NCBI GenBank assembly: GCA_043824495.1
Contig: JBDRSV010000029.1
Span: 1-41,542, forward strand
DNA: 41,542 nt
Reading direction: 5' to 3'
Source of the DNA: Candidatus Aenigmatarchaeota archaeon
GTDB lineage: Archaea; Aenigmatarchaeota; Aenigmatarchaeia; QMZP01
Shown: positions 7,993 to 32,056 of the stretch, one piece after another
How the letters are laid out: each line of letters starts with the position of its first letter
How positions within the stretch are numbered: position 1 is the first letter of the stretch
The notes under the pieces: model-generated
What the model saw: only the letters and a program-made list of their open reading frames with translations
Databases searched by the model: none
What the model was told of the DNA's origin: nothing
Translations under genes and position numbers: made by a program

Positions 7993-8039
7993 AAAAACCG
8001 AGGTAGGAGTGTGTTTTAAAACCCCACTCCCACACTCGG
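7993..8039 (-). terminator. GC-rich hairpin plus U-tract downstream of the GC-rich ORF
   Basis: Minus strand ccgag-tgtgggagtg...cactcctac-ctcgg followed by ttttt; a second hairpin caggcag...ctgcctg lies at 8049-8074. Confidence 0.7.
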
Positions 8040-8098
8040 CTAGTAATTCAGGCAGGTGTTAGCACATCTGCCTGCTTTACCGCGGAATCCACCGGGGT

Positions 8099-9016
8099 TT
8101 AGCAGCGTAGCATGCCAGTCGACACAGAGGGTGTCGCATCTGTCCACGTCTCGATCGTCGTCTTCGCAGCGCCGTCACAGCTCACCTTCCAGGTAGCTGG
8201 ACCGGCGCGATTCGCGGCACCGTAATTGGAGAACTCGACCACGCTGGCTTTAGGCGGCGCACATGTCGCTTGTGTGGTGGTCGTCTCGGTCATCGTCACG
8301 AAAGGAGAAGCCACGGAATGACTCATAGCCATGTTCGTGCAGTCGTCGCAGGATACGCGGTCATATAGAACCATCGTCGTTTTCGAGTTCGGCTTGATGA
8401 CGTTGTACCTCAGATGTTCACCGGGATCGCCGATGTCGGTTTCGGTCGAGACCTCGGGCCTAACGGTAATATGGCCAATAGCAACGATGGGCAACATGAC
8501 GACGTTGTGAACCTCCCCACAACTTTGCCATTGGCCGCCGCCGCATTCGATCGTCGCCGCATTTGCGTTTCTGTCTTCGCTCGTACATGGATTTGGGAAA
8601 TCGCCCGTGCCCATGTCGTTCGTCACCATACACGCGTTTGCCGGCACATTCTCTTCTGCTGCCCGCATGTCGGTTTCCGTCTTGAACGTGTTGTTCGTCC
8701 GCGGGTTAGGATAACATGTCCATACCGCGCCGTTCTTCACCGTCATCACATTGGTCGCATCCGTGGTCGCCATCTGCGTGTCGGTGTCCTGCCGTACGAG
8801 CCGCTCACCATTCGTCATAGCCAGACCGTTTTGCTCGAACTGGTTGTTCGGTGCACGTGCAGTCTGCCATTCAGTCGCGCTTGAATTCGCAATCTGCGTC
8901 GTGGTGAGGGCTTCCGTGGTCGCCGTATTCATGGTCGTACCGACTGCCAAGACCGGGACAATCAAGATAGCCATAAAGACCGCGATACAGAAGAGTGGGT
9001 GGCGAAGTCTCGCCAT
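8099..9016 (-). CDS. GC-rich, compositionally alien ORF: predicted secreted Thr/Ala/Asn/Cys-rich protein of unknown function (305 aa)
   Basis: Strong SD GAGGAGG shortly before ATG 9016 (MARLRHPLF...); signal-peptide-like N-terminus; 11 Cys; no family recognised; 57-67% GC in two counted lines. Confidence 0.65.
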   Translation of the reverse strand: MARLRHPLFCIAVFMAILIVPVLAVGTTMNTATTEALTTTQIANSSATEWQTARAPNNQFEQNGLAMTNGERLVRQDTDTQMATTDATNVMTVKNGAVWTCYPNPRTNNTFKTETDMRAAEENVPANACMVTNDMGTGDFPNPCTSEDRNANAATIECGGGQWQSCGEVHNVVMLPIVAIGHITVRPEVSTETDIGDPGEHLRYNVIKPNSKTTMVLYDRVSCDDCTNMAMSHSVASPFVTMTETTTTQATCAPPKASVVEFSNYGAANRAGPATWKVSCDGAAKTTIETWTDATPSVSTGMLRC

Positions 9017-9019
9017 GAT

Positions 9020-9410
9020 GGAACCCTCCTCTTTCAAACATCGGTGAAATAGGGGCGCTGGAAGAAACGTCCTTGTTGTCTGTTGCGCCAGTTGGGACTT
9101 GTGGGATTAGCCAATCCCCGTAAGGTACAACTCTTTCCTTACTCGTGAGCTAAGCTTACTCCTTTCGTTCCTTGGATGAGGGTTTACTTGCGCTAGACAC
9201 GCAAATCTTCACTATTTCGAACAGAAGTCAGAACAAGTTGATATGGGATTTGAAGAATCGACCGCACTTGATCTACATTCAAGAAAACGCGTTATTGTCT
9301 TGCGTTTTCAGTTGCAGATGCTCATTCGAGATGTGTAGGATTAAGTGATTTTGCAAATAACCCATATGAAAACAAATTGTTTGAAATTAGTGAAAATGAT
9401 AAATCATATT
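9020..9410 (-). promoter_or_regulatory. Long, potentially structured 5' leader of the GC-rich ORF
   Basis: Hairpins gaaaacgc/gcgttttc (9283-9309), ttgcg/cgcaa (9188-9204), gggatt/aatccc (9103-9118), ggcgc/gcgcc (9054-9089); TATA-like tttaaata on the minus strand near 9433-9441. Confidence 0.45.
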
Positions 9411-24696: not shown

Positions 24697-25695
24697 TTAC
24701 TGTAAAATTTCATTAATTTCTTTTTTTAGGTCAACTTCTTCCAAGTTATTTACAATAATTTCATTGGATTCTGTGAAATCGTTATGTTTCACAAAACCTG
24801 AGAATATGAATTCTTTTCCCATCACATCAACATTTTCATAAAGTTCAAGTGGATCTTTGAATCTCCTTTTCAACTCATCAGCTGATTCTCCAACAATTTT
24901 CTCTGCTTGTTCTCTAAAGAAAACGGCTCTTATATTACCCTTTCCGTCATCTATCACACCTGATAGTACCATATTGTATTTAGGTTCTACAACACCATGT
25001 TCCTTACAAACCCATTTTTCACTCTCATTTAATAATCGGGTTCCACATGTAGGACAGACTTCATAAAAAGGATTTCTCTTATATAATTGCACTAGACATG
25101 CGCGTGTTTCTGCGTAATCTCCAATTTTAATTTCAGATATTGTCATCTTCTTTGTTGGTGATCTGACATCAAATGACTGTTTCACATTACCTTCTGGTAT
25201 TTCTATCTCTTCTTCTACCTTTTCTACTTTACCTCTACCAAGCATGATGTTTGGGGTTCCTCTATTGTCATCTCTTACATAACCACCGCTAATTTTTATT
25301 ACATCTTCCTCTTTTATTTCTAATTTAGTTAGTAAATCAATTTCATCATTCCATAATGTTAGTCTAATTGTGCCTGTTTCATCAGCTAAATGAACATTAA
25401 GAACCTGTCCTTTCTTTCCTTTCTTATCAAAATTTCTAGGTTCATCTACTTTTACTATCTTAGCTAGCAAGTCAATTGATTTGATACCAGAAACAACATT
25501 CTTTATTTTCAACTGTTTTGTGTCATTCTTAAGCAAGCTTATACCAAGTTCTCTACCTATTATATAAGCTGCTCCTTCTTCAGAAACCAGACCAGATAAT
25601 TCGTCTTGCTTTTCCTCTATCATTTTCTTGATCTCTTCTTTGCTGTTTTTGGATTCTTTGATTATTTTCTCAATTATCTCGTCAACAGAACTCAT
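24697..25695 (-). CDS. rpa: Archaeal replication protein A (OB folds plus Zn finger)
   Basis: GLVSEEGAAYII, LADETGTIRLTLWN, CPTC...CKEHG, IDDGKGNIRAVFF. Confidence 0.9.
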   Translation of the reverse strand: MSSVDEIIEKIIKESKNSKEEIKKMIEEKQDELSGLVSEEGAAYIIGRELGISLLKNDTKQLKIKNVVSGIKSIDLLAKIVKVDEPRNFDKKGKKGQVLNVHLADETGTIRLTLWNDEIDLLTKLEIKEEDVIKISGGYVRDDNRGTPNIMLGRGKVEKVEEEIEIPEGNVKQSFDVRSPTKKMTISEIKIGDYAETRACLVQLYKRNPFYEVCPTCGTRLLNESEKWVCKEHGVVEPKYNMVLSGVIDDGKGNIRAVFFREQAEKIVGESADELKRRFKDPLELYENVDVMGKEFIFSGFVKHNDFTESNEIIVNNLEEVDLKKEINEILQ

Positions 25696-25730
25696 AGTTT
25701 ATTTAAGCACCCAAGATTTAAATAAAATTC

Positions 25731-25745
25731 GTGAAACTGTTTCAC
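25731..25745. promoter_or_regulatory. Perfect palindrome GTGAAAC-T-GTTTCAC upstream of rpa-radA
   Basis: Read directly; adjacent to a TATA-like element ~25 bp before the rpa ATG. Confidence 0.55.
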
Positions 25746-25823
25746 TCTATTACAATATCACATAACAGTAGTAAATACCTTTTTAAGTCTTCTGTTTATA
25801 TAAAAACATAATCAGGTAGACCT

Positions 25824-26855
25824 ATGGCTAAACAAGAAAAAATATTGATACTTTGTGTGGATAGGGATGATGATATAGGTAGAAAAACCTCTTTCAAAGG
25901 TCCTATAGTAGGCAAAGAAAACATAAAGAAATGTGCAACTGATCTGGGTATGTCTGATCCTACTGATTCTGATGTAAATGCACTATTCGAGACAATTCGT
26001 GTGTATAATGAAATGAAAGATAAGAAGAATCTAGAATTGGCAGTTCTTACAGGACACAGGAACGTTGGAATAGAATCTGACAGAATAATATCAAAGCAAT
26101 TTGATAAGGTTATTGATAAGTTCAAAGCCGATTATGTTGTCCTTGTAACAGACGGAGTAGAAGATGAGAATGTTATGCCTATAATACAGTCAAAGGTTCC
26201 TATTTTATCAGTTAAAAGGGTTATAGTGAAACAATCAGAACAATTAGAATCTGGCTACTACAAGATCAAAGATTTCATAAATGAGTCTCTTGACAACCCA
26301 AAATTCTCAAGACTTGTGTTTGGTTTGCCAGCTATCATACTTATCCTACTAGGTCTATTTGGCACAGAGGCCGTTAGAATAATTATAGGTCTCATAGGTA
26401 TCTACTTATTCGTCAAGGGATTCAAGCTTGAGGAGTATGTAACAGGTGCAGTTGAAGAGCTTCAATCATCTTTCAGTAGAAGAAGATTTGCTTTCTTCAT
26501 GTATGTGGTAGCTATTGTATTCACTGTATTAGGTTTCTTCAGGGGTTATGATGGTGGTCTAGGTTTCGTAAATCTAGGTGTATTCGAAATAACTGCTGGA
26601 TTTGTATCATCCTCTATATACATGTTCTTTATAGCTGGGACAGCTCTTTGGATAGGTAGAAATGTGAGTATAGGAAAGAGAACAACAGGAAGAGTAGTTG
26701 CTGTACCTGTGTTTGGTCTAGCTATATCTTTAGTCATATTCAACGCATCTGAGCTTATAATAAAACCACAATTATCCATATTCGATTTTATACTATCTAT
26801 AATAGTAGGATTCGCACTTCTGATAATAGCACTGGTAATAGAATGGAGAAGTTAG
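25824..26855 (+). CDS. DUF373-family archaeal membrane protein
   Basis: LILCVDRDDDIGRK, DPTDSDVNALF, VTDGVEDE, RVIVKQSEQLESGYY, followed by TMs. Confidence 0.92.
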   Translation: MAKQEKILILCVDRDDDIGRKTSFKGPIVGKENIKKCATDLGMSDPTDSDVNALFETIRVYNEMKDKKNLELAVLTGHRNVGIESDRIISKQFDKVIDKFKADYVVLVTDGVEDENVMPIIQSKVPILSVKRVIVKQSEQLESGYYKIKDFINESLDNPKFSRLVFGLPAIILILLGLFGTEAVRIIIGLIGIYLFVKGFKLEEYVTGAVEELQSSFSRRRFAFFMYVVAIVFTVLGFFRGYDGGLGFVNLGVFEITAGFVSSSIYMFFIAGTALWIGRNVSIGKRTTGRVVAVPVFGLAISLVIFNASELIIKPQLSIFDFILSIIVGFALLIIALVIEWRS

Positions 26856-27079
26856 AAGTAAACTGGAACTACTGTAAAATCTTCTAGAACATATCTTTTA
26901 CCCATTGGTGGTATTCTAATCTCATCACCTGTAGACATATTCATTCCGCCTATTTTCACATATCTCCTATCATGTGATAATCCTGTGTTTAGCCTACCTA
27001 TATGTGCATAATAAGCTGCTTGGTCTCCATTATATTGTTGTAAGTTTGCCCAGTTTATTGGTGTTAATTCTTCGTCCAT
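26852..27079 (-). CDS. Hypothetical protein (75 aa)
   Basis: AGGTGA SD before MDEELT; operon-like with the next gene. Confidence 0.6.
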   Translation of the reverse strand: MDEELTPINWANLQQYNGDQAAYYAHIGRLNTGLSHDRRYVKIGGMNMSTGDEIRIPPMGKRYVLEDFTVVPVYF

Positions 27080-27089
27080 AACTCTCACC

Positions 27090-27374
27090 TTAGAAGTATT
27101 TTCTCGAGAAGTTTCTTATAACTAGTACTTGAGGGTTAAAGTCGAGTTGATCGATCCAAATTGGGGTCTTTATTCTGTATTTTCTAGCCCCTATTTCAAG
27201 TTCATCTCCGTTTTCTAGAGGAACACCACTAAAACTCACACTATGGCCCTCTCCATTATTTCCTATATACACGTCTAACTTACCAGTGGCACAACCACCT
27301 AGACCTAGTGCGGTCCTTCCTTGATATCTTCTCAATCCTCTAGCGGTTATTTTTGATACTCTTCCAGTGCTCAT
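27090..27374 (-). CDS. Hypothetical protein (94 aa)
   Basis: GGAGTGAGG SD before MSTGRV. Confidence 0.6.
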   Translation of the reverse strand: MSTGRVSKITARGLRRYQGRTALGLGGCATGKLDVYIGNNGEGHSVSFSGVPLENGDELEIGARKYRIKTPIWIDQLDFNPQVLVIRNFSRKYF

Positions 27375-27399
27375 AATCCTCACTCCGGGTTTTTGAACT

Positions 27400-27660
27400 C
27401 ACTTTGTGATATCTCCTATTACTTTTGGTCATTTATAAAACAATTCCTTGATCCAAAACTCTCAAACTTGAGAAAAACTCTCACTTTTGGAGAAATTTAC
27501 GTGTTTACTATGATATATATTTCCTAAAAGATAAACTAGAACATATAGAAAATAATAGAACTAATTAAATATATCTAATAGAATATATATAATACTACAT
27601 GACTCATGGAAAAAATAGATAGTTTTATATAATATCATGTTAAAAGTATATTGAAACAAA
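27400..27660. other. AT-rich intergenic region with repeated motifs (flank A)
   Basis: aaaactctca at 27455 and 27474, tatgatata at 27509, several tagaa units, atatatctaatagaa at 27569-27583. Confidence 0.6.
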
Positions 27661-27672
27661 GTGAGGGTTGCT

Positions 27673-27990
27673 ATGAATAAGAACGTACTAGAAGACTTGT
27701 TTTTAAGAGAAAAACCTGCAAAAATATTGTTAGGATTGAAAACATCAAAAGAATCTGTTTACGCTACCACGCTTTCTAAAGAGGCTAATTGTACTTATTC
27801 TCACACAATCAAGATATTAGATATGTTCAACAAGCTTGGTATAGTCAAATTTGATAAGCAAGGTAGAATAAAGAGAGTTACGCTTACAGATGATGGCTGG
27901 GATATAGCTCATAACTTAGAGGCTATGATTAAGAAATTAACACAGATAGAGGAAAATGTAGATAGATCTAAGAGAACCAAGAAAAAATGA
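27673..27990 (+). CDS. Winged-helix DNA-binding protein
   Basis: FLREKPAKIL, YATTLSKEANCTYSHTIKIL, FDKQGRIKRVTLTDDG wing. Confidence 0.85.
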   Translation: MNKNVLEDLFLREKPAKILLGLKTSKESVYATTLSKEANCTYSHTIKILDMFNKLGIVKFDKQGRIKRVTLTDDGWDIAHNLEAMIKKLTQIEENVDRSKRTKKK

Positions 27991-28021
27991 GTGGAGTGAG
28001 AGTTAAACCCGGACATTAGTT

Positions 28022-28231
28022 TTGATATACATGTATACACAAGACAGGCTAATGAAAATAATGAAGAAGGATGTCCTCCTATTTGTTATAGGGTTCAGTC
28101 TATTATTCTCGTCTGTTACTTATAGTTTTGTGGATACTAGTATTTCTCTTGATCATTTCCTAATAGCTGTCATATTCTTCATAGGGGCTATTTTCATTCA
28201 GGCATTCAAAGATGTAAAATACATAAGATAA
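28022..28231 (+). CDS. Small two-TM membrane protein (start uncertain)
   Basis: Two hydrophobic segments. Confidence 0.5.
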   Translation: MIYMYTQDRLMKIMKKDVLLFVIGFSLLFSSVTYSFVDTSISLDHFLIAVIFFIGAIFIQAFKDVKYIR

Positions 28232-29137
28232 TCAATGTGCTCCACAGCACTTTTTGTGTTTTAGTCCACTTCCACACGGACATGAATCATTTCTTCCTAC
28301 CTTTTCAGTAGATCTTCTGTATGTAGTGCCCTTAGATTTTGTGGATCGTAATTCGGAAGCAGCTACAGAAGTACTTCTTGCAGCATTACCTCTAATCATG
28401 GCTAAAGTAGCAGCAGAATTTGTTGCAGAAACAGTACCATTAGGAACCAAATTCATGGTATAATCAATATCTGTTATATTAAACGCTTCCATGTATCTCT
28501 CTTGAAGACGGTTTGTGCACATGTTCTCTATGAGACCTTGAAGGTATTGTGCTTCTTTAAAGAATTCCAATCTTGCTCTTAATTGTATCTCTCTCTCAAT
28601 TTGAGTTCTACCCATTACTGGTTGCATCCTATTGTTTAATAGACTGCCTGTTATCCGAATTTCTCTAAAAGACAAGTCACAAAGATCTTTAAGCTCTTCT
28701 TCTCTTTCATGTGTCAGAGAAACTCCTTGCATGCAATGAAGTGATTTCCAAAATTCTTCTGTTTGTGCATCACCTTCCATACCAGGAACATTAGACTCTA
28801 TAAGCATAGCTTCTGGATAAGATCTGCATACAGTGTATTGTTTTGAGTCATGTACAGAACATCTTTGGTATACCGTATCTAAATTAGTACAAGGAACTTT
28901 AGATTTTGGAACAGGTATGCTCCAATCAAGATCTTCAGGGTCAGGAAAATACATCCATCCGTCACAAAATTCATCAAAGGCTTCGGGTATACTCAAATCT
29001 CTATCTTCTTTTACTTTTGCATATACACATGCTCTGTAAAGATCAGGAAGAGTAACAGGAATACCTAAATTTGCATGTGTACAGCATTCGACACAGTTTA
29101 CCACATCACACCTAAATGTTTTGTATTCTTCTACCAT
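28232..29137 (-). CDS. YkgJ-like CxxCxxCC protein with C-terminal SEC-C motif
   Basis: CVNCVECC-type N-terminal cluster ([10 protein letters not shown]), PC...[34 protein letters not shown]. Confidence 0.85.
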
Positions 29138-29326
29138 AAACAAGAATTAATAGAAAACTTAAAGAACCCTGTTTTTAGGTACATTTCTCCCCCAGACCCC
29201 ATATTCCATTGTGAAAACTACCGGAAAAACCCATTTTATATCGTGAGGTTTACTTTATGATATAATGACAACTAAAATGTCGTGTAATGTAAACTATATA
29301 TGTGAGTAAAGTAAACTAGTAGTTAG

Positions 29327-29968
29327 GTGGCTAAATTGGCAGAATTTTCATCAGAAACCATGAGTGACAAGAAAGGGTATTTAACAAAAGATCAAGTTGA
29401 TAGACTTTTGAATGCTGCTGGGAATCTAAGAGACAGACTTCTTTTACAACTTATGTATAGGTGTGGAAGACGTGTTTCTGAAGTTTTACTCCTCAAAAAA
29501 GAGGACATTTTGTGGGATGATAAGATGATCATTTTTACCATTTTGAAGAGAAAGAAACCAATAAAGGAATTAAAACCAGTAGATGAGGGCACTATGAAGC
29601 TTCTAGATTTGTATGTAAATGAGAATATACAAATGCATGGACTGAGGAAAAAAATGGAAGATGGTAGGCTTTTTCCAATAACAAGACAATATGTATTCAA
29701 GCTTATGCGTAAACTGGGAGACAAAACTGGAATAATTCAAGTAGGTAAAACCAAACTACACCCACATCATTTAAGACATAGTTTTGCTATTCATGCTGTC
29801 AGAACCAGTGTTAAATCAACTGAAGATTTGAGTAAACTACAAAGATATATGGGTCATGCTAATATATCTACAACTGCTCATTATTTACAATTTTCACCAA
29901 GTGAACAGCGGAGCATAATAACGGACATGTGGGAAAAAAAGAAAGATAAAAATGAATCAAAAAAATGA
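29327..29968 (+). CDS. Tyrosine recombinase (Xer/Fim-like), catalytic domain only, full active-site set
   Basis: LRDRLLLQLMYRCGRRVSEV (Arg), LK, HPHHLRHSFA (HxxR), MGHANISTTAHY (His, Tyr). Confidence 0.94.
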   Translation: MAKLAEFSSETMSDKKGYLTKDQVDRLLNAAGNLRDRLLLQLMYRCGRRVSEVLLLKKEDILWDDKMIIFTILKRKKPIKELKPVDEGTMKLLDLYVNENIQMHGLRKKMEDGRLFPITRQYVFKLMRKLGDKTGIIQVGKTKLHPHHLRHSFAIHAVRTSVKSTEDLSKLQRYMGHANISTTAHYLQFSPSEQRSIITDMWEKKKDKNESKK

Positions 29969-30134
29969 ATTATGGATCTTGAAACCAGAACGTAGAGACT
30001 ATATTTTTTATAAAATTAAAAGGGATAAAAACTGGAATAAAATAATAAATTTCCACACATCAAGAGAGCTTAAAGTAACAGGAAAACAAATACAGAGAGC
30101 ATTTGATAATGCGTTTAGGGAGTTGGAATCTTGA
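29952..30134 (+). CDS. 60-aa basic protein overlapping both recombinase genes
   Basis: Overlaps the first recombinase by 17 nt and the second via TTGA. Confidence 0.6.
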   Translation: MNQKNELWILKPERRDYIFYKIKRDKNWNKIINFHTSRELKVTGKQIQRAFDNAFRELES

Positions 30135-30601
30135 GTTTAGCAGATCTGATGGATACTGATTTTGGGAAGAAAGAGGAAACAAAAAGAATTCTTACACCCA
30201 TTGAGATAGCTAAATTATTTCAGTCCGCTGAGGGAAAACCAAGAGACTGCATGCTTATTAAGTGTTTGTATTATTTTGGTTTGAGTAATTCTGAAGTACA
30301 AAACTTGAAGAAAGATGATATAAGTTTCCAGGAAATGAAAGTGAGAGTTGTGAAAGGAGAGAAAAAAAGAGCTCGATATATAGCGATTCCAGAAGGATTT
30401 GGAAATGAATTGGAAAGTTTTGTGTCTGATAGCGGAGAATATGTGTTCTCTGGAAGATCTAAAGGTTTACTAAGTGATAGACATATTCGTAGACTAGTTA
30501 AATCGTATGCATGCGAAGCTGGTTTGCGTGATGGGTCCGAAATTAATCCTCACTCTCTGAGAAATTCTTATTTGTCTCATGTGAGGAATTTAGGGAAATG
30601 A
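30131..30601 (+). CDS. Catalytically dead tyrosine-recombinase paralogue
   Basis: RDCMLIKCLYYFGLSNSEV (Arg replaced by Ser at 30284), VVKGEKKR, INPHSLRNSY, stop before the box II His/Tyr. Confidence 0.85.
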   Translation: MSLADLMDTDFGKKEETKRILTPIEIAKLFQSAEGKPRDCMLIKCLYYFGLSNSEVQNLKKDDISFQEMKVRVVKGEKKRARYIAIPEGFGNELESFVSDSGEYVFSGRSKGLLSDRHIRRLVKSYACEAGLRDGSEINPHSLRNSYLSHVRNLGK

Positions 30602-30605
30602 TATA

Positions 30606-30641
30606 TTCTACTAGATATATATTTTGATATATCTAATAGAA
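30606..30641. other. dif-like tyrosine-recombinase core site (15-bp arms, 6-bp spacer)
   Basis: ttctactagatatat-attttg-atatatctaatagaa; arms are 14/15 inverted complements. Confidence 0.72.
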
Positions 30642-30838
30642 AGAATCTATTATATAATATATTCTGAGAAATATATACTAGACAAGTTAAATTAGAAAAC
30701 TCTCACCAAATTTCTATGATATAAAAGTGAGAATTCACACGTGAGTGTAGAGAGCGGACATAAAACGTCATCAAGGCGAGCTGATTCATCCTATATAAAT
30801 GTAATTACTAATAATGAAGCCAAAGAACGCTAGAGAAA

Positions 30839-32056
30839 GTGGTAGAAAGTGAGGATTTTATGCCAACAGATCAAGTCATCAGTCCTGAATGGTCAAGAAA
30901 GGATAGATTATCATTAGATCTTTGTAGAACCATAGAACGCGAAGAGGATCTTATAGAATATGCTATGCGGTTAGCAACGGATTATCATGGTGATGACACA
31001 AGAACCAATGGTAGTAGTTGGAAAGGATATCTAAGAGAGTTGGTGGGTATGTACAGTTCTTTCCTTGCTTTAGGAGAAGAAAGAGAATCTTATCCAGGAG
31101 TTACGAGATATGGTAAAACACCTGTATCTAAAGAGGACAAGTATAGAAGAAATGAAGCAATAGCAGCTGCTTGGCTATCTGAGATTGATCCAGAAAAGAT
31201 ACCAACATATAGCTCATATGATTTTGGAAGAGTAGTAAAGGCTCTGAGAGACAGGTCATTTGGGCGCGATGTAACCATCAATCGTTTACTAAGACCAACT
31301 TTTAAACCATCACGAACAAGTAGACATGTTTCATATATAGTTGGTAGAACAAAATATAGTGAGTCTAATGATTCATATTCTAATTATTCTGATTTTATAA
31401 CACGATTGTTTGAATTAAAAGAAGATGGTACACTGGTTAAACTTTTGGGGAGAGAAGAGCAGATAGAAGATTTGACTATTCTAGCTGCCATATTGAAATT
31501 GACTTCCAGGTTGAAAAACACATTTCCTAAGGAACCTTTTGATGATACTAGATTTTCCTCTGAATATAATGGTATGGGGGATGCGTCGTCTAGTGCATTG
31601 GCAGAATTCTATATACATCATGGATTACTAGAGGTGTTTGCAGCTCAAAATAATTTTAGACCAAATGTCCAAACTTTTCTTGAAGCCAAGAGAAAACAGT
31701 TTAATGGTGCAAGGCTTGCCAATGCGATCGATGATATGTCTTTTTACTTCATTTTAGCTGAAGATTTGGTCCTACGTCTACCTGATGACAGATTAATAAA
31801 AAGAGAAGATGTAAAGCGTGAATTAACATGTGGTTATGAAAATGCTCTTGCTGTCACAGAAGAGTTGTGGACAGATTTGAGTGGTGTTGGAGAAGGTCCT
31901 GATTTTAGTGTAGATGATTTCATAGATCATGTATTACCAAATATGGGAGCAAATAAAGACAGAGATCCTGAAAAATCTAGAGATAGAATATTACCAACGC
32001 TTATGAGAAGTAGAACAAAGACAAAAAGAATTGTAACCGTGGCAACAGGTAAATAA
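30839..32056 (+). CDS. Hypothetical protein with degenerate RelA/SpoT-type HD domain (start may be ATG 30860)
   Basis: YHGDDTRTNG, EAIAAAWLSEID, FGRDV and LKLTSRLKN align by eye with H-x-G-Q-x-R, AAALLHD, FG..V and IKLADRLHN. Confidence 0.6.
   Translation: MVESEDFMPTDQVISPEWSRKDRLSLDLCRTIEREEDLIEYAMRLATDYHGDDTRTNGSSWKGYLRELVGMYSSFLALGEERESYPGVTRYGKTPVSKEDKYRRNEAIAAAWLSEIDPEKIPTYSSYDFGRVVKALRDRSFGRDVTINRLLRPTFKPSRTSRHVSYIVGRTKYSESNDSYSNYSDFITRLFELKEDGTLVKLLGREEQIEDLTILAAILKLTSRLKNTFPKEPFDDTRFSSEYNGMGDASSSALAEFYIHHGLLEVFAAQNNFRPNVQTFLEAKRKQFNGARLANAIDDMSFYFILAEDLVLRLPDDRLIKREDVKRELTCGYENALAVTEELWTDLSGVGEGPDFSVDDFIDHVLPNMGANKDRDPEKSRDRILPTLMRSRTKTKRIVTVATGK

Follow-up and report, generated by a model that had tools for sequence, protein, structure and literature searches.

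The DNA analysed here, referred to throughout as the window, is the 41,542-nucleotide contig JBDRSV010000029.1 from the genome (assembly GCA_043824495.1; 1.01 Mb, 80% complete) of a Candidatus Aenigmatarchaeota archaeon, a small archaeon from groundwater. Our subject is a block of three tightly packed open reading frames (ORFs) on its plus strand: Int1 (29327-29968), a 213-aa, active-looking tyrosine recombinase made up of a catalytic domain only, an ORF of 60 aa (29952-30134), and Int2trunc (30131-30601), a 156-aa relative of such recombinases. The 60-aa ORF overlaps the Int1 gene by 17 nt, and its stop shares TTGA with the TTG start of the Int2 gene. An inverted repeat of dif-like architecture, with 15-nt arms and a 6-nt spacer (30606-30641, no strand assigned), starts 4 bp past the TGA of Int2trunc. 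An earlier note on this DNA had proposed that the two recombinases form a heteromer in which the second protein is a non-catalytic subunit, and that the repeat is their site. We compared the locus with related genomes and known recombinases, and find that Int2trunc is a conserved pseudo-recombinase, new for archaea and with precedents in bacteria (TnsF, MrpR).

An active recombinase and a truncated relative

Int1 matches the tyrosine recombinase family PF00589 at 9.6e-27 (94.3 bits, cut-off 27.1). Aligned to the XerA of P. abyssi (4a8e), it keeps Arg I (GRRVSE), HxxR (HHLR), and His III with the Tyr (GHANISTTAHY), as the earlier note had read it, and the catalytic set of the superfamily (R, K, HxxR, H/W, Y) is present. 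Residues R49, H147, R150, H177 and Y186 are invariant among 20 homologues; more than 300 homologues of about 205 aa were found, the closer ones at 60-82% identity, and the ratio of non-synonymous to synonymous change (dN/dS) is 0.06-0.17. On the XerA model NF040815 the match covers positions 92-258 of 263 for Int1 and 90-230 for Int2trunc, so that both lack the core-binding (CB) domain, which upholds another claim of the note. At 115.1 and 84.1 bits against an equivalog cut-off of 220, the two were rejected as XerA equivalogs. Int1 was likewise rejected as a Fim-type invertase, with 46.8 bits (2.4e-12) against a cut-off of 222 for the tyrosine-type DNA invertase model NF007371 (FimB/FimE). As read from its sequence, Int1 is an intact enzyme with a conserved site of its own just upstream of the start, described below. 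It occurs in 16 of the 371 genomes of the phylum, all from one order, as a single copy with 60-70% identity to the Int1 of the window. A related genome whose Int1 is 82% identical keeps the gene order, including DUF373 upstream.

Int2trunc also matches PF00589 (8.5e-14, 52.1 bits against 27.1), over model positions 3-140 of 172. Where XerA has GLRVSE it reads GLSNSE, i.e., Ser at the box I Arg, while HSLR is kept, and it ends at the position of XerA residue 238, ahead of the GH...Y segment and the alphaN helix. Arg I, His III, the Tyr nucleophile and the alphaM and alphaN helices are thus all missing, and the alignment agrees with the note's description of the protein in every respect. With these residues gone, Int2trunc cannot act as a recombinase. 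Its AlphaFold2 (AF2) model has a predicted local distance difference test score (pLDDT) of 87, and a Foldseek search with this model returned the XerA catalytic domains 5hxy and 4a8e at a template-modelling (TM) score of 0.79 and a root-mean-square deviation of about 2 Å; the SroF repressor of phage phi3T is among the structural matches.

Five proteins of other assemblies (P0122-P0126; about 58-64% identity, 154-172 aa) also have Ser at box I and stop at the same position, and G321, a genome of another species of the genus, also has a Ser-type truncated Int2. Int2 relatives at a greater distance (41-53% identity) keep the Arg and GH...Y and have a length of about 185-200 aa, and in several other Int2 lineages that retain the Tyr, K, S or T stands in place of the box I Arg. 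In the family tree the truncated sequences group in one clade, with 100% support in the Shimodaira-Hasegawa-like approximate likelihood ratio test (SH-aLRT) and rather long branches. A scan of metagenomes with Int2trunc found one distant locus alone, at 30% identity.

The six sequences of the truncated clade contain no internal stops or frameshifts; their frames all run to 154-172 codons with a common end point, and their synonymous differences are near saturation. Pairwise dN/dS values, computed by the Nei-Gojobori method (NG86) and reported where defined, are 0.09-0.33, with synonymous sites mostly saturated (dS mostly >1); the closest pair has a dN of 0.071 and a dS of 0.319. Two blocks, SDRHIRR(I/L)VKSYAC and RDCM(L/M)(L/I)KC, are near-invariant, and in three members Arg II has become Lys, which fits a protein without catalysis. 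An assembly error was dropped as the source of the truncation, which is common to six independent assemblies. A strain-specific pseudogene or read error, the outcome that the note had named as fatal to its proposal, is ruled out by the nearest relatives sharing the loss of R and Y, and the dN/dS check that it had called for shows that the dead copy does not evolve neutrally. Int2trunc is a folded, conserved and selected protein without catalysis, which supports this part of the note's proposal; it is probably a DNA-binding helper or regulator and not an enzyme.

The 60-aa ORF was presented in the note as a small basic protein linking the two recombinases. Its overlap and coordinates are right, but it is no independent protein. 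In relatives a protein of 191-193 aa, here called Mid191, is encoded between Int1 and Int2, and the 60-aa ORF aligns to the last ~57 residues of it at 56% identity (tblastn 2.5e-16 to residues 123-191 of the protein at the related locus L008). The ORF thus corresponds to the C-terminal part, a helix and tail, and the window carries a deletion of about 400 bp. The AF2 model of a full-length relative has a pLDDT of 93.5, and its central sheet weakly resembles archaeal Hjc resolvases (Foldseek against the PDB, E 0.011, probability 0.98, TM 0.27-0.40); Pfam matches to Hjc and Mrr are sub-threshold, at E about 0.07. D106 is invariant, the E of ECGP is K in long fused forms, no xK follows, and the canonical PD-(D/E)xK motif is not conserved. 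By these comparisons the 60-aa ORF is the apparent leftover of a deleted gene for an Hjc-like domain.

With 114 representatives at 50% identity, Mid191 is a small family, and its association with Int2 takes several forms. In L021 and L035 it is fused to Int2 as the N-terminal domain of 364-aa proteins. Another family of the order has long Int2 proteins of 452-503 aa (L027, L028, L032, L033, L040), in which a Mid191-like N-terminus is followed by an acidic, Pro/Glu-rich linker and a catalytic domain with Ser or Thr at Arg I and with His and Tyr intact. A different nuclease-like domain is fused to Int2 in L025.

An active small recombinase always lies no more than one gene upstream of Int2trunc, and the identity of this partner varies. 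It is Int1 in the window, with the 60-aa remnant, and in the closest relative (L008, L041), with the 191-aa gene; in L042 and L043 it is a 189-aa Int2 with the box I Arg (Arg-type), and in G321 an Arg-type Int2 together with a 147-aa protein. Tandem genes for an Arg-type Int2 and then an Int2 with Lys at box I occur in L024, L025 and L029. The family thus repeatedly places a degenerate gene after an active one, which does not amount to a fixed Int1-Int2 heteromer. The conserved pairing expected in the note therefore stands as far as an active small recombinase always adjoins, but not as a pairing with Int1 specifically. That Int1 always travels with Int2 was dropped, being true of about half of the Int1-bearing genomes: an Int2-family gene follows Int1 on the same contig in 8/16 and lies on another contig in one (G298). 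A prediction of the Int1-Int2trunc complex, with both given as alignments, scored 0.00 in two runs without controls and counts neither way on binding.

A second dead-plus-live pair was seen in the same genome. On contig C10 (L003:114-3301) orc1/cdc6 is followed by a 270-aa degenerate XerA paralogue, with Gln at Arg I, GN for GH and no Tyr; an intact 278-aa XerA comes next. Among 91 genomes of the order none yielded a close orthologue of this degenerate paralogue: the best matches have 45-46% identity to it, similar to what it shares with ordinary XerA.

Candidate sites and surrounding genes

The 15-6-15 palindrome downstream of Int2trunc has arms that are complementary at 14 of 15 positions. 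None of 100 shuffles of the window matched it, and the whole assembly holds two inverted repeats with 15-nt arms, at most one mismatch and a 4-10 nt spacer, the palindrome included. With at most one mismatch, the arm has three copies genome-wide, all at this locus: the two of the palindrome and an exact lone half-site at 27569-27583 on the plus strand, about 90 bp upstream of a winged helix-turn-helix (wHTH) gene. This half-site has the same sequence as the right arm (30627-30641), to which it stands in direct orientation. All three copies are intergenic and adjoin TATA-like boxes; they precede the wHTH gene or a gene for a 405-aa protein. The inner arms match those of the P. abyssi dif site that has been used in experiments (PMC2958812) at 8/11 and 9/11 positions. 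Transcribed into RNA, the sequence would fold into a hairpin (-12.9 kcal/mol, z -2.7), which makes a 3'-end hairpin or an operator possible.

The palindrome is specific to the genome of the window. No such repeat is present in the orthologous intergenic regions of L042, L043 and L047, and G321 has a different palindrome, 10-6-10, at the orthologous position. The core GATATAW-N6-WTATATC was found in 6 of the 91 genomes of the order, as often as its reversed control, and the other hits are without extended arms; a cognate role is thus unsupported. Unlike a dif site, the palindrome is not a single conserved site common to related genomes, and its nearly identical arms give no sign of two arm specificities. 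The dif-like site of the note accordingly exists, 4 bp downstream and beyond chance, but the part of the claim that made it the cognate site of the pair is unsupported. Its role could be in recombination, as an operator or as a hairpin at the 3' end.

Two side observations concern these sequences. The half-site is directly preceded by AACTAATTAAAT (window 27559-27583), and the same 12-mer is the left arm of the G321 palindrome (L012:1430-1457); such a mixture of two arm types would be in keeping with a former recombination junction, but its partner junction was not found. Two independent metagenome contigs of the closest relative stop 12-22 bp past the Int2trunc stop (L008:5680-5702, L041:2816-2828), which would be explained by a repeat or population heterogeneity there.

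Conserved candidate cognate sites lie elsewhere and, on present alignments, are different from the 15-6-15 palindrome. Upstream of Int1, RGTTTAC-N13-GTAAAC followed by an invariant TGTAAACTATATA was found in all six loci compared. The window (29246-29319, plus strand) has AGGTTTAC-N13-GACAACT, then two direct TAA(T/A)GTAAACTA repeats that overlap a TATA-like box. A further palindrome, ATGTCCGRAAA-N6-TTTYCGGACAT (11-6-11), occurs exactly once in 24 of the 91 genomes of the order, with 0 control matches; as related genomes are not independent, figures for this site are counts only. Its place is between the genes for the wHTH protein and the Arg-type Int2, 35-270 bp upstream of the latter (e.g., L013:1230-1257, L017:1237-1264, L023:1243-1270, L036:1424-1451); Int2 gene and palindrome together have the look of a recombinase with a linked dif-like site of its own. 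The full 11-6-11 site is absent from all 16 Int1-bearing genomes. The arm type ATGTCCG(G/A)AAA also occurs within Int2 coding sequences, at NVRK codons. In L013, L014, L017, L023, L020, L025 and L035 a 15-16-nt motif stands on either side of the Int2 gene and the palindrome, its two copies being inverted: CCGCAAAAACGGACAT follows the wHTH gene, and ATGTCCGKWWWTGCGG comes just past the Int2 stop.

The 7-mer CGGACAT of these arms has a density of 0.92/kb in related loci against 0.045/kb in the genome of the window, i.e., it is twentyfold denser. GTGAG-N9-CGGACAT, which contains an arm of the family's conserved recombination site, occurs four times in the genome, and two of these copies, both on the plus strand and in the same orientation, flank the block. 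One (27996-28016) lies 6 bp past the wHTH stop and has an orthologous copy after the wHTH gene in L008 and L043; the other (30741-30761) is in the same place in L042, L043 and L047. The latter overlaps the start of a 30-aa ORF (30741-30833; MSVESGH...) with its own GTGAG-type ribosome-binding motif, which is partly conserved in L043 (MSIQAGH...); as this ORF overlaps the CGGACAT arm, the conservation is perhaps at the DNA level.

The wHTH protein (109 aa; 27661-27990, plus strand) is the most conserved component of the module, at 56-81% identity in 23 related loci, each of which had been fetched for its Int2-family gene; its Pfam match to HTH_45 (6.8e-4) is below the cut-off. The gene for the 405-aa protein (30839-32056, plus strand) lies 3' of Int2trunc in all four lineages with downstream sequence. 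The protein has no Pfam hit in the window, is about 29-30% identical to its G321 and L042 homologues and is far less conserved than Int2trunc. The G321 homologue matches HD_4 at 1.7e-3, below the cut-off, and the protein may have an HD fold with lost metal ligands.

The wider neighbourhood consists of ordinary chromosomal genes (DUF373, macro domain, HD, ZIP), and the DUF373 neighbourhood is common to the window and L008. Scans of the window for tRNAs and Rfam families gave no match and thus no tRNA-type attachment (att) site. Among the contigs compared over 26500-32000 one spans 26500-31174 without joints or variants, with rare excision or inversion forms invisible in contigs. The stretch is present in one groundwater DNA data set, probably its source, and no RNA run is listed. 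The cumulative GC skew has its minimum within 25000-29000 of the window, and gene orientation changes from minus to plus at about 27.4-27.7 kb; this minimum may be just coding-strand bias, and the orc1/cdc6 gene that was found sits on another contig (C10). At 8001-9000 the GC content is 56%, against about 33% elsewhere, with a 312-aa ORF on the minus strand (8099-9037) and no Rfam match.

Known systems and rival readings

The best sequence and structure matches of the two proteins are to XerA, and they share the catalytic fold of XerC/XerD and of archaeal XerA with its dif site. Further likenesses to Xer/dif are the inverted arms round a 6-bp spacer and two paralogous recombinase genes side by side. 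Unlike in Xer systems, Int1 and Int2trunc have no CB domain, and Int2trunc cannot cleave, in contrast to XerC and XerD, each of which is catalytic. XerA works without a partner, and the genome of the window has a separate, full-length XerA on C10. A heterotetramer of the XerC/XerD type with two catalytic subunits was rejected, given that Int2trunc lacks the nucleophile and the arms are 14/15 alike. The single-copy 11-6-11 palindrome upstream of Arg-type Int2 recalls XerS/difSL, in which difSL is genetically linked to xerS (PMC2731167), and XerH/difH. However, Int2 has about 190 aa and no CB domain, the genomes that bear the 11-6-11 site also encode XerA, and the genome of the window has neither the full site nor an Arg-type Int2. 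With FimB/FimE, Int1 shares a length of about 200 aa and a structure of catalytic domain only, and the invertase models align over their full length; the score is far below the cut-off, and no inverted site pair flanking an invertible segment was found at the locus.

The closest precedents for a dead partner are bacterial. In the Tsy/Tn6022 gene set (PMC10293859) an active tyrosine recombinase is joined by a small HTH protein, a protein of nuclease fold and another recombinase-like protein, which in some lineages has been inactivated. The likeness to our module claimed here is one of gene set: TnsF is about 500 aa long with zinc fingers and two CB-like domains, unlike Int2trunc, and our locus has no transposon ends, comM target or Tn7 genes, while its nuclease fold is Hjc-like and not GIY-YIG. 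MrpR (YopR) of phage SPbeta has the recombinase fold without Arg I and without recombinase activity, and is a DNA-binding regulator (PMC10516654). MrpR and SroF thus resemble Int2trunc as tyrosine recombinase folds with Arg I and activity lost. MrpR keeps a CB domain, a full catalytic domain and the Tyr, whereas Int2trunc lacks all three and is archaeal, chromosomal and paired with an active recombinase. For archaea, the 2021 review of tyrosine recombinases (PMC8371274) features, as far as a term search of it reaches, split suicidal integrases only, and neither DPANN lineages nor a conserved inactive paralogue came up there. The novelty that the note had seen thus holds within that scope for archaea, but not for dead recombinase folds as such, which are known in bacteria and phages.

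Tentatively, we favour the reading that the locus is a variant of a conserved module in which Int2trunc would be a non-catalytic accessory or regulatory subunit for the adjacent active recombinase. The module, which is found in one order of Aenigmatarchaeota, combines short sites with CGGACAT arms, a winged-helix gene and either one or two small tyrosine recombinases without CB domains. In the Int2trunc clade Ser has replaced Arg I, and His III, the Tyr helix and alphaN are gone, yet it has been kept as an open, selected protein. What remains could fold as the DNA-binding body of the catalytic domain, bind family-type arms, such as the two that flank the block, and keep subunit contacts, acting as helper or regulator to whichever active small recombinase adjoins. 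In XerA, alphaN docks in the groove that takes the neighbour's alphaN in bacterial recombinases, and deletion of alphaN abolishes recombination but not cleavage (PMC3646895). Int2trunc has no alphaN to donate and may keep the groove for that of a neighbour, in which case it might cap or bias the cyclic subunit contacts of strand exchange.

Several findings weigh against this reading. At E <= 1e-10 the search found no Int2 in 7 of the 16 genomes with Int1, which points to an Int1 that is independent of Int2, and the partner gene of Int2trunc differs between lineages, its neighbour being an Arg-type Int2 paralogue in three of the five others. The genome of the window, searched for the full 11-6-11 site, has none. 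There is local decay: the Mid gene has been deleted down to 60 aa, and the 405-aa protein of the window has WLSEID where relatives have W(L/M)HDV, i.e., SE in place of the HD motif. Between the same genome pairs, non-synonymous change in Int2trunc is 1.4-2.8x that of the active neighbour; with dN/dS low, this suggests a constraint that is real but relaxed. Finally, binding of DNA or of a recombinase by Int2trunc is something that we infer. A stricter version, which we consider improbable, would make Int2trunc an obligate non-catalytic subunit of a mixed tetramer with a CB-less Int1 or Arg-type Int2, in which the reaction would stop at one strand-exchange pair, leaving the Holliday junction to the Hjc-like Mid191 domain.

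The strongest competing explanation takes Int2trunc for a pure regulator like MrpR: it would be a domesticated transcription factor for the operon or the 405-aa gene, apart from recombination, and the palindrome and the half-site at 27569 would be operators, its own or those of the wHTH protein. The 405-aa gene is constant downstream in every lineage with sequence there while the upstream recombinase varies, the three arm copies are intergenic near TATA-like boxes ahead of the wHTH and 405-aa genes, and MrpR, with its loss of Arg I, and SroF among the structural matches provide the precedent. However, the absence of the palindrome from the intergenic regions of L042, L043 and L047 would leave a conserved protein without a conserved operator there, Int2trunc lacks the CB domain of MrpR, and the constant adjacent active recombinase would be superfluous for a pure regulator; we regard this explanation as conceivable rather than likely. 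Faster evolution than that of Int1, the loss of Arg I and of the C-terminus, a variable Arg II, the nearby decay of Mid191 and of the HD motif, and the replacement of the box I Arg (K, S, T) in several Int2 lineages, which suggests relaxed constraint family-wide, would all suit a slowly decaying, functionless relic of a tandem Int2 duplicate, its frame open by chance or by 5' translational coupling to the upstream gene. The selection data make such a relic unlikely: six near-saturated sequences keep a frame of the same length and end with dN/dS well below 1, and the two near-invariant blocks persist.

Two further explanations turn on the palindrome. It might be the chromosomal dif of the canonical XerA on C10, with the recombinase block as an element integrated at dif. 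The 6-bp spacer architecture, the uniqueness of the palindrome in the genome, the matches of the inner arms to the P. abyssi dif, and the lone direct arm copy 3 kb upstream, like the degenerate second site of dif-integrated elements, are consistent with this. Yet the core is no more frequent in the order than its reversed control and lacks extended arms elsewhere, same-genus G321 has another palindrome at this position, and the gene order containing DUF373 is kept in the relative with an 82% identical Int1, which makes this account quite improbable. The least probable of all, and very much so, is that the Int2trunc gene is one half of a split 'suicidal' integrase of the SSV type, or is interrupted at its own att site, with the Tyr end elsewhere and rejoined on excision. 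Int(C) of SSV-type integrases carries the catalytic domain, and both halves are pseudogenes (PMC8371274, PMC7253208). Our case is alike in being an archaeal integrase gene fragment by a recombination-site-like sequence, with a truncation 4 bp from the palindrome, contigs of L008 and L041 that stop just past the Int2trunc stop, and the ATGTCCG(G/A)AAA arm inside Int2 coding sequences. It is unlike in that Int2trunc is conserved and selected, and the idea was rejected when tblastn with Int2 C-terminal segments found XerA, Int1 and the tail of the 60-aa remnant but no orphan complementary fragment in the 80%-complete assembly. Moreover, the change of Arg I to Ser would leave a rejoined protein defective, four lineages keep the same downstream gene across the junction, and the contig that spans the region has no alternative joint, subject to the invisibility of rare forms noted above.

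Significance for archaeal recombination

Pseudo-enzymes of the tyrosine recombinase fold are just emerging in bacteria and phages with TnsF and MrpR, and a conserved truncated copy with an active partner would extend this theme to DPANN archaea. If the mixed tetramer acting with Mid191 were true, archaea would have a recombination machine of two proteins whose division of labour is as yet undescribed. At about 200 and 155 aa and without CB domains, the pair would offer a minimal two-protein system for studying site recognition and subunit communication. The comparison also exposes a previously undescribed module, consisting of a winged-helix protein, a single-copy 11-6-11 palindrome and a recombinase of about 190 aa, which is carried by roughly one in four genomes of the order.

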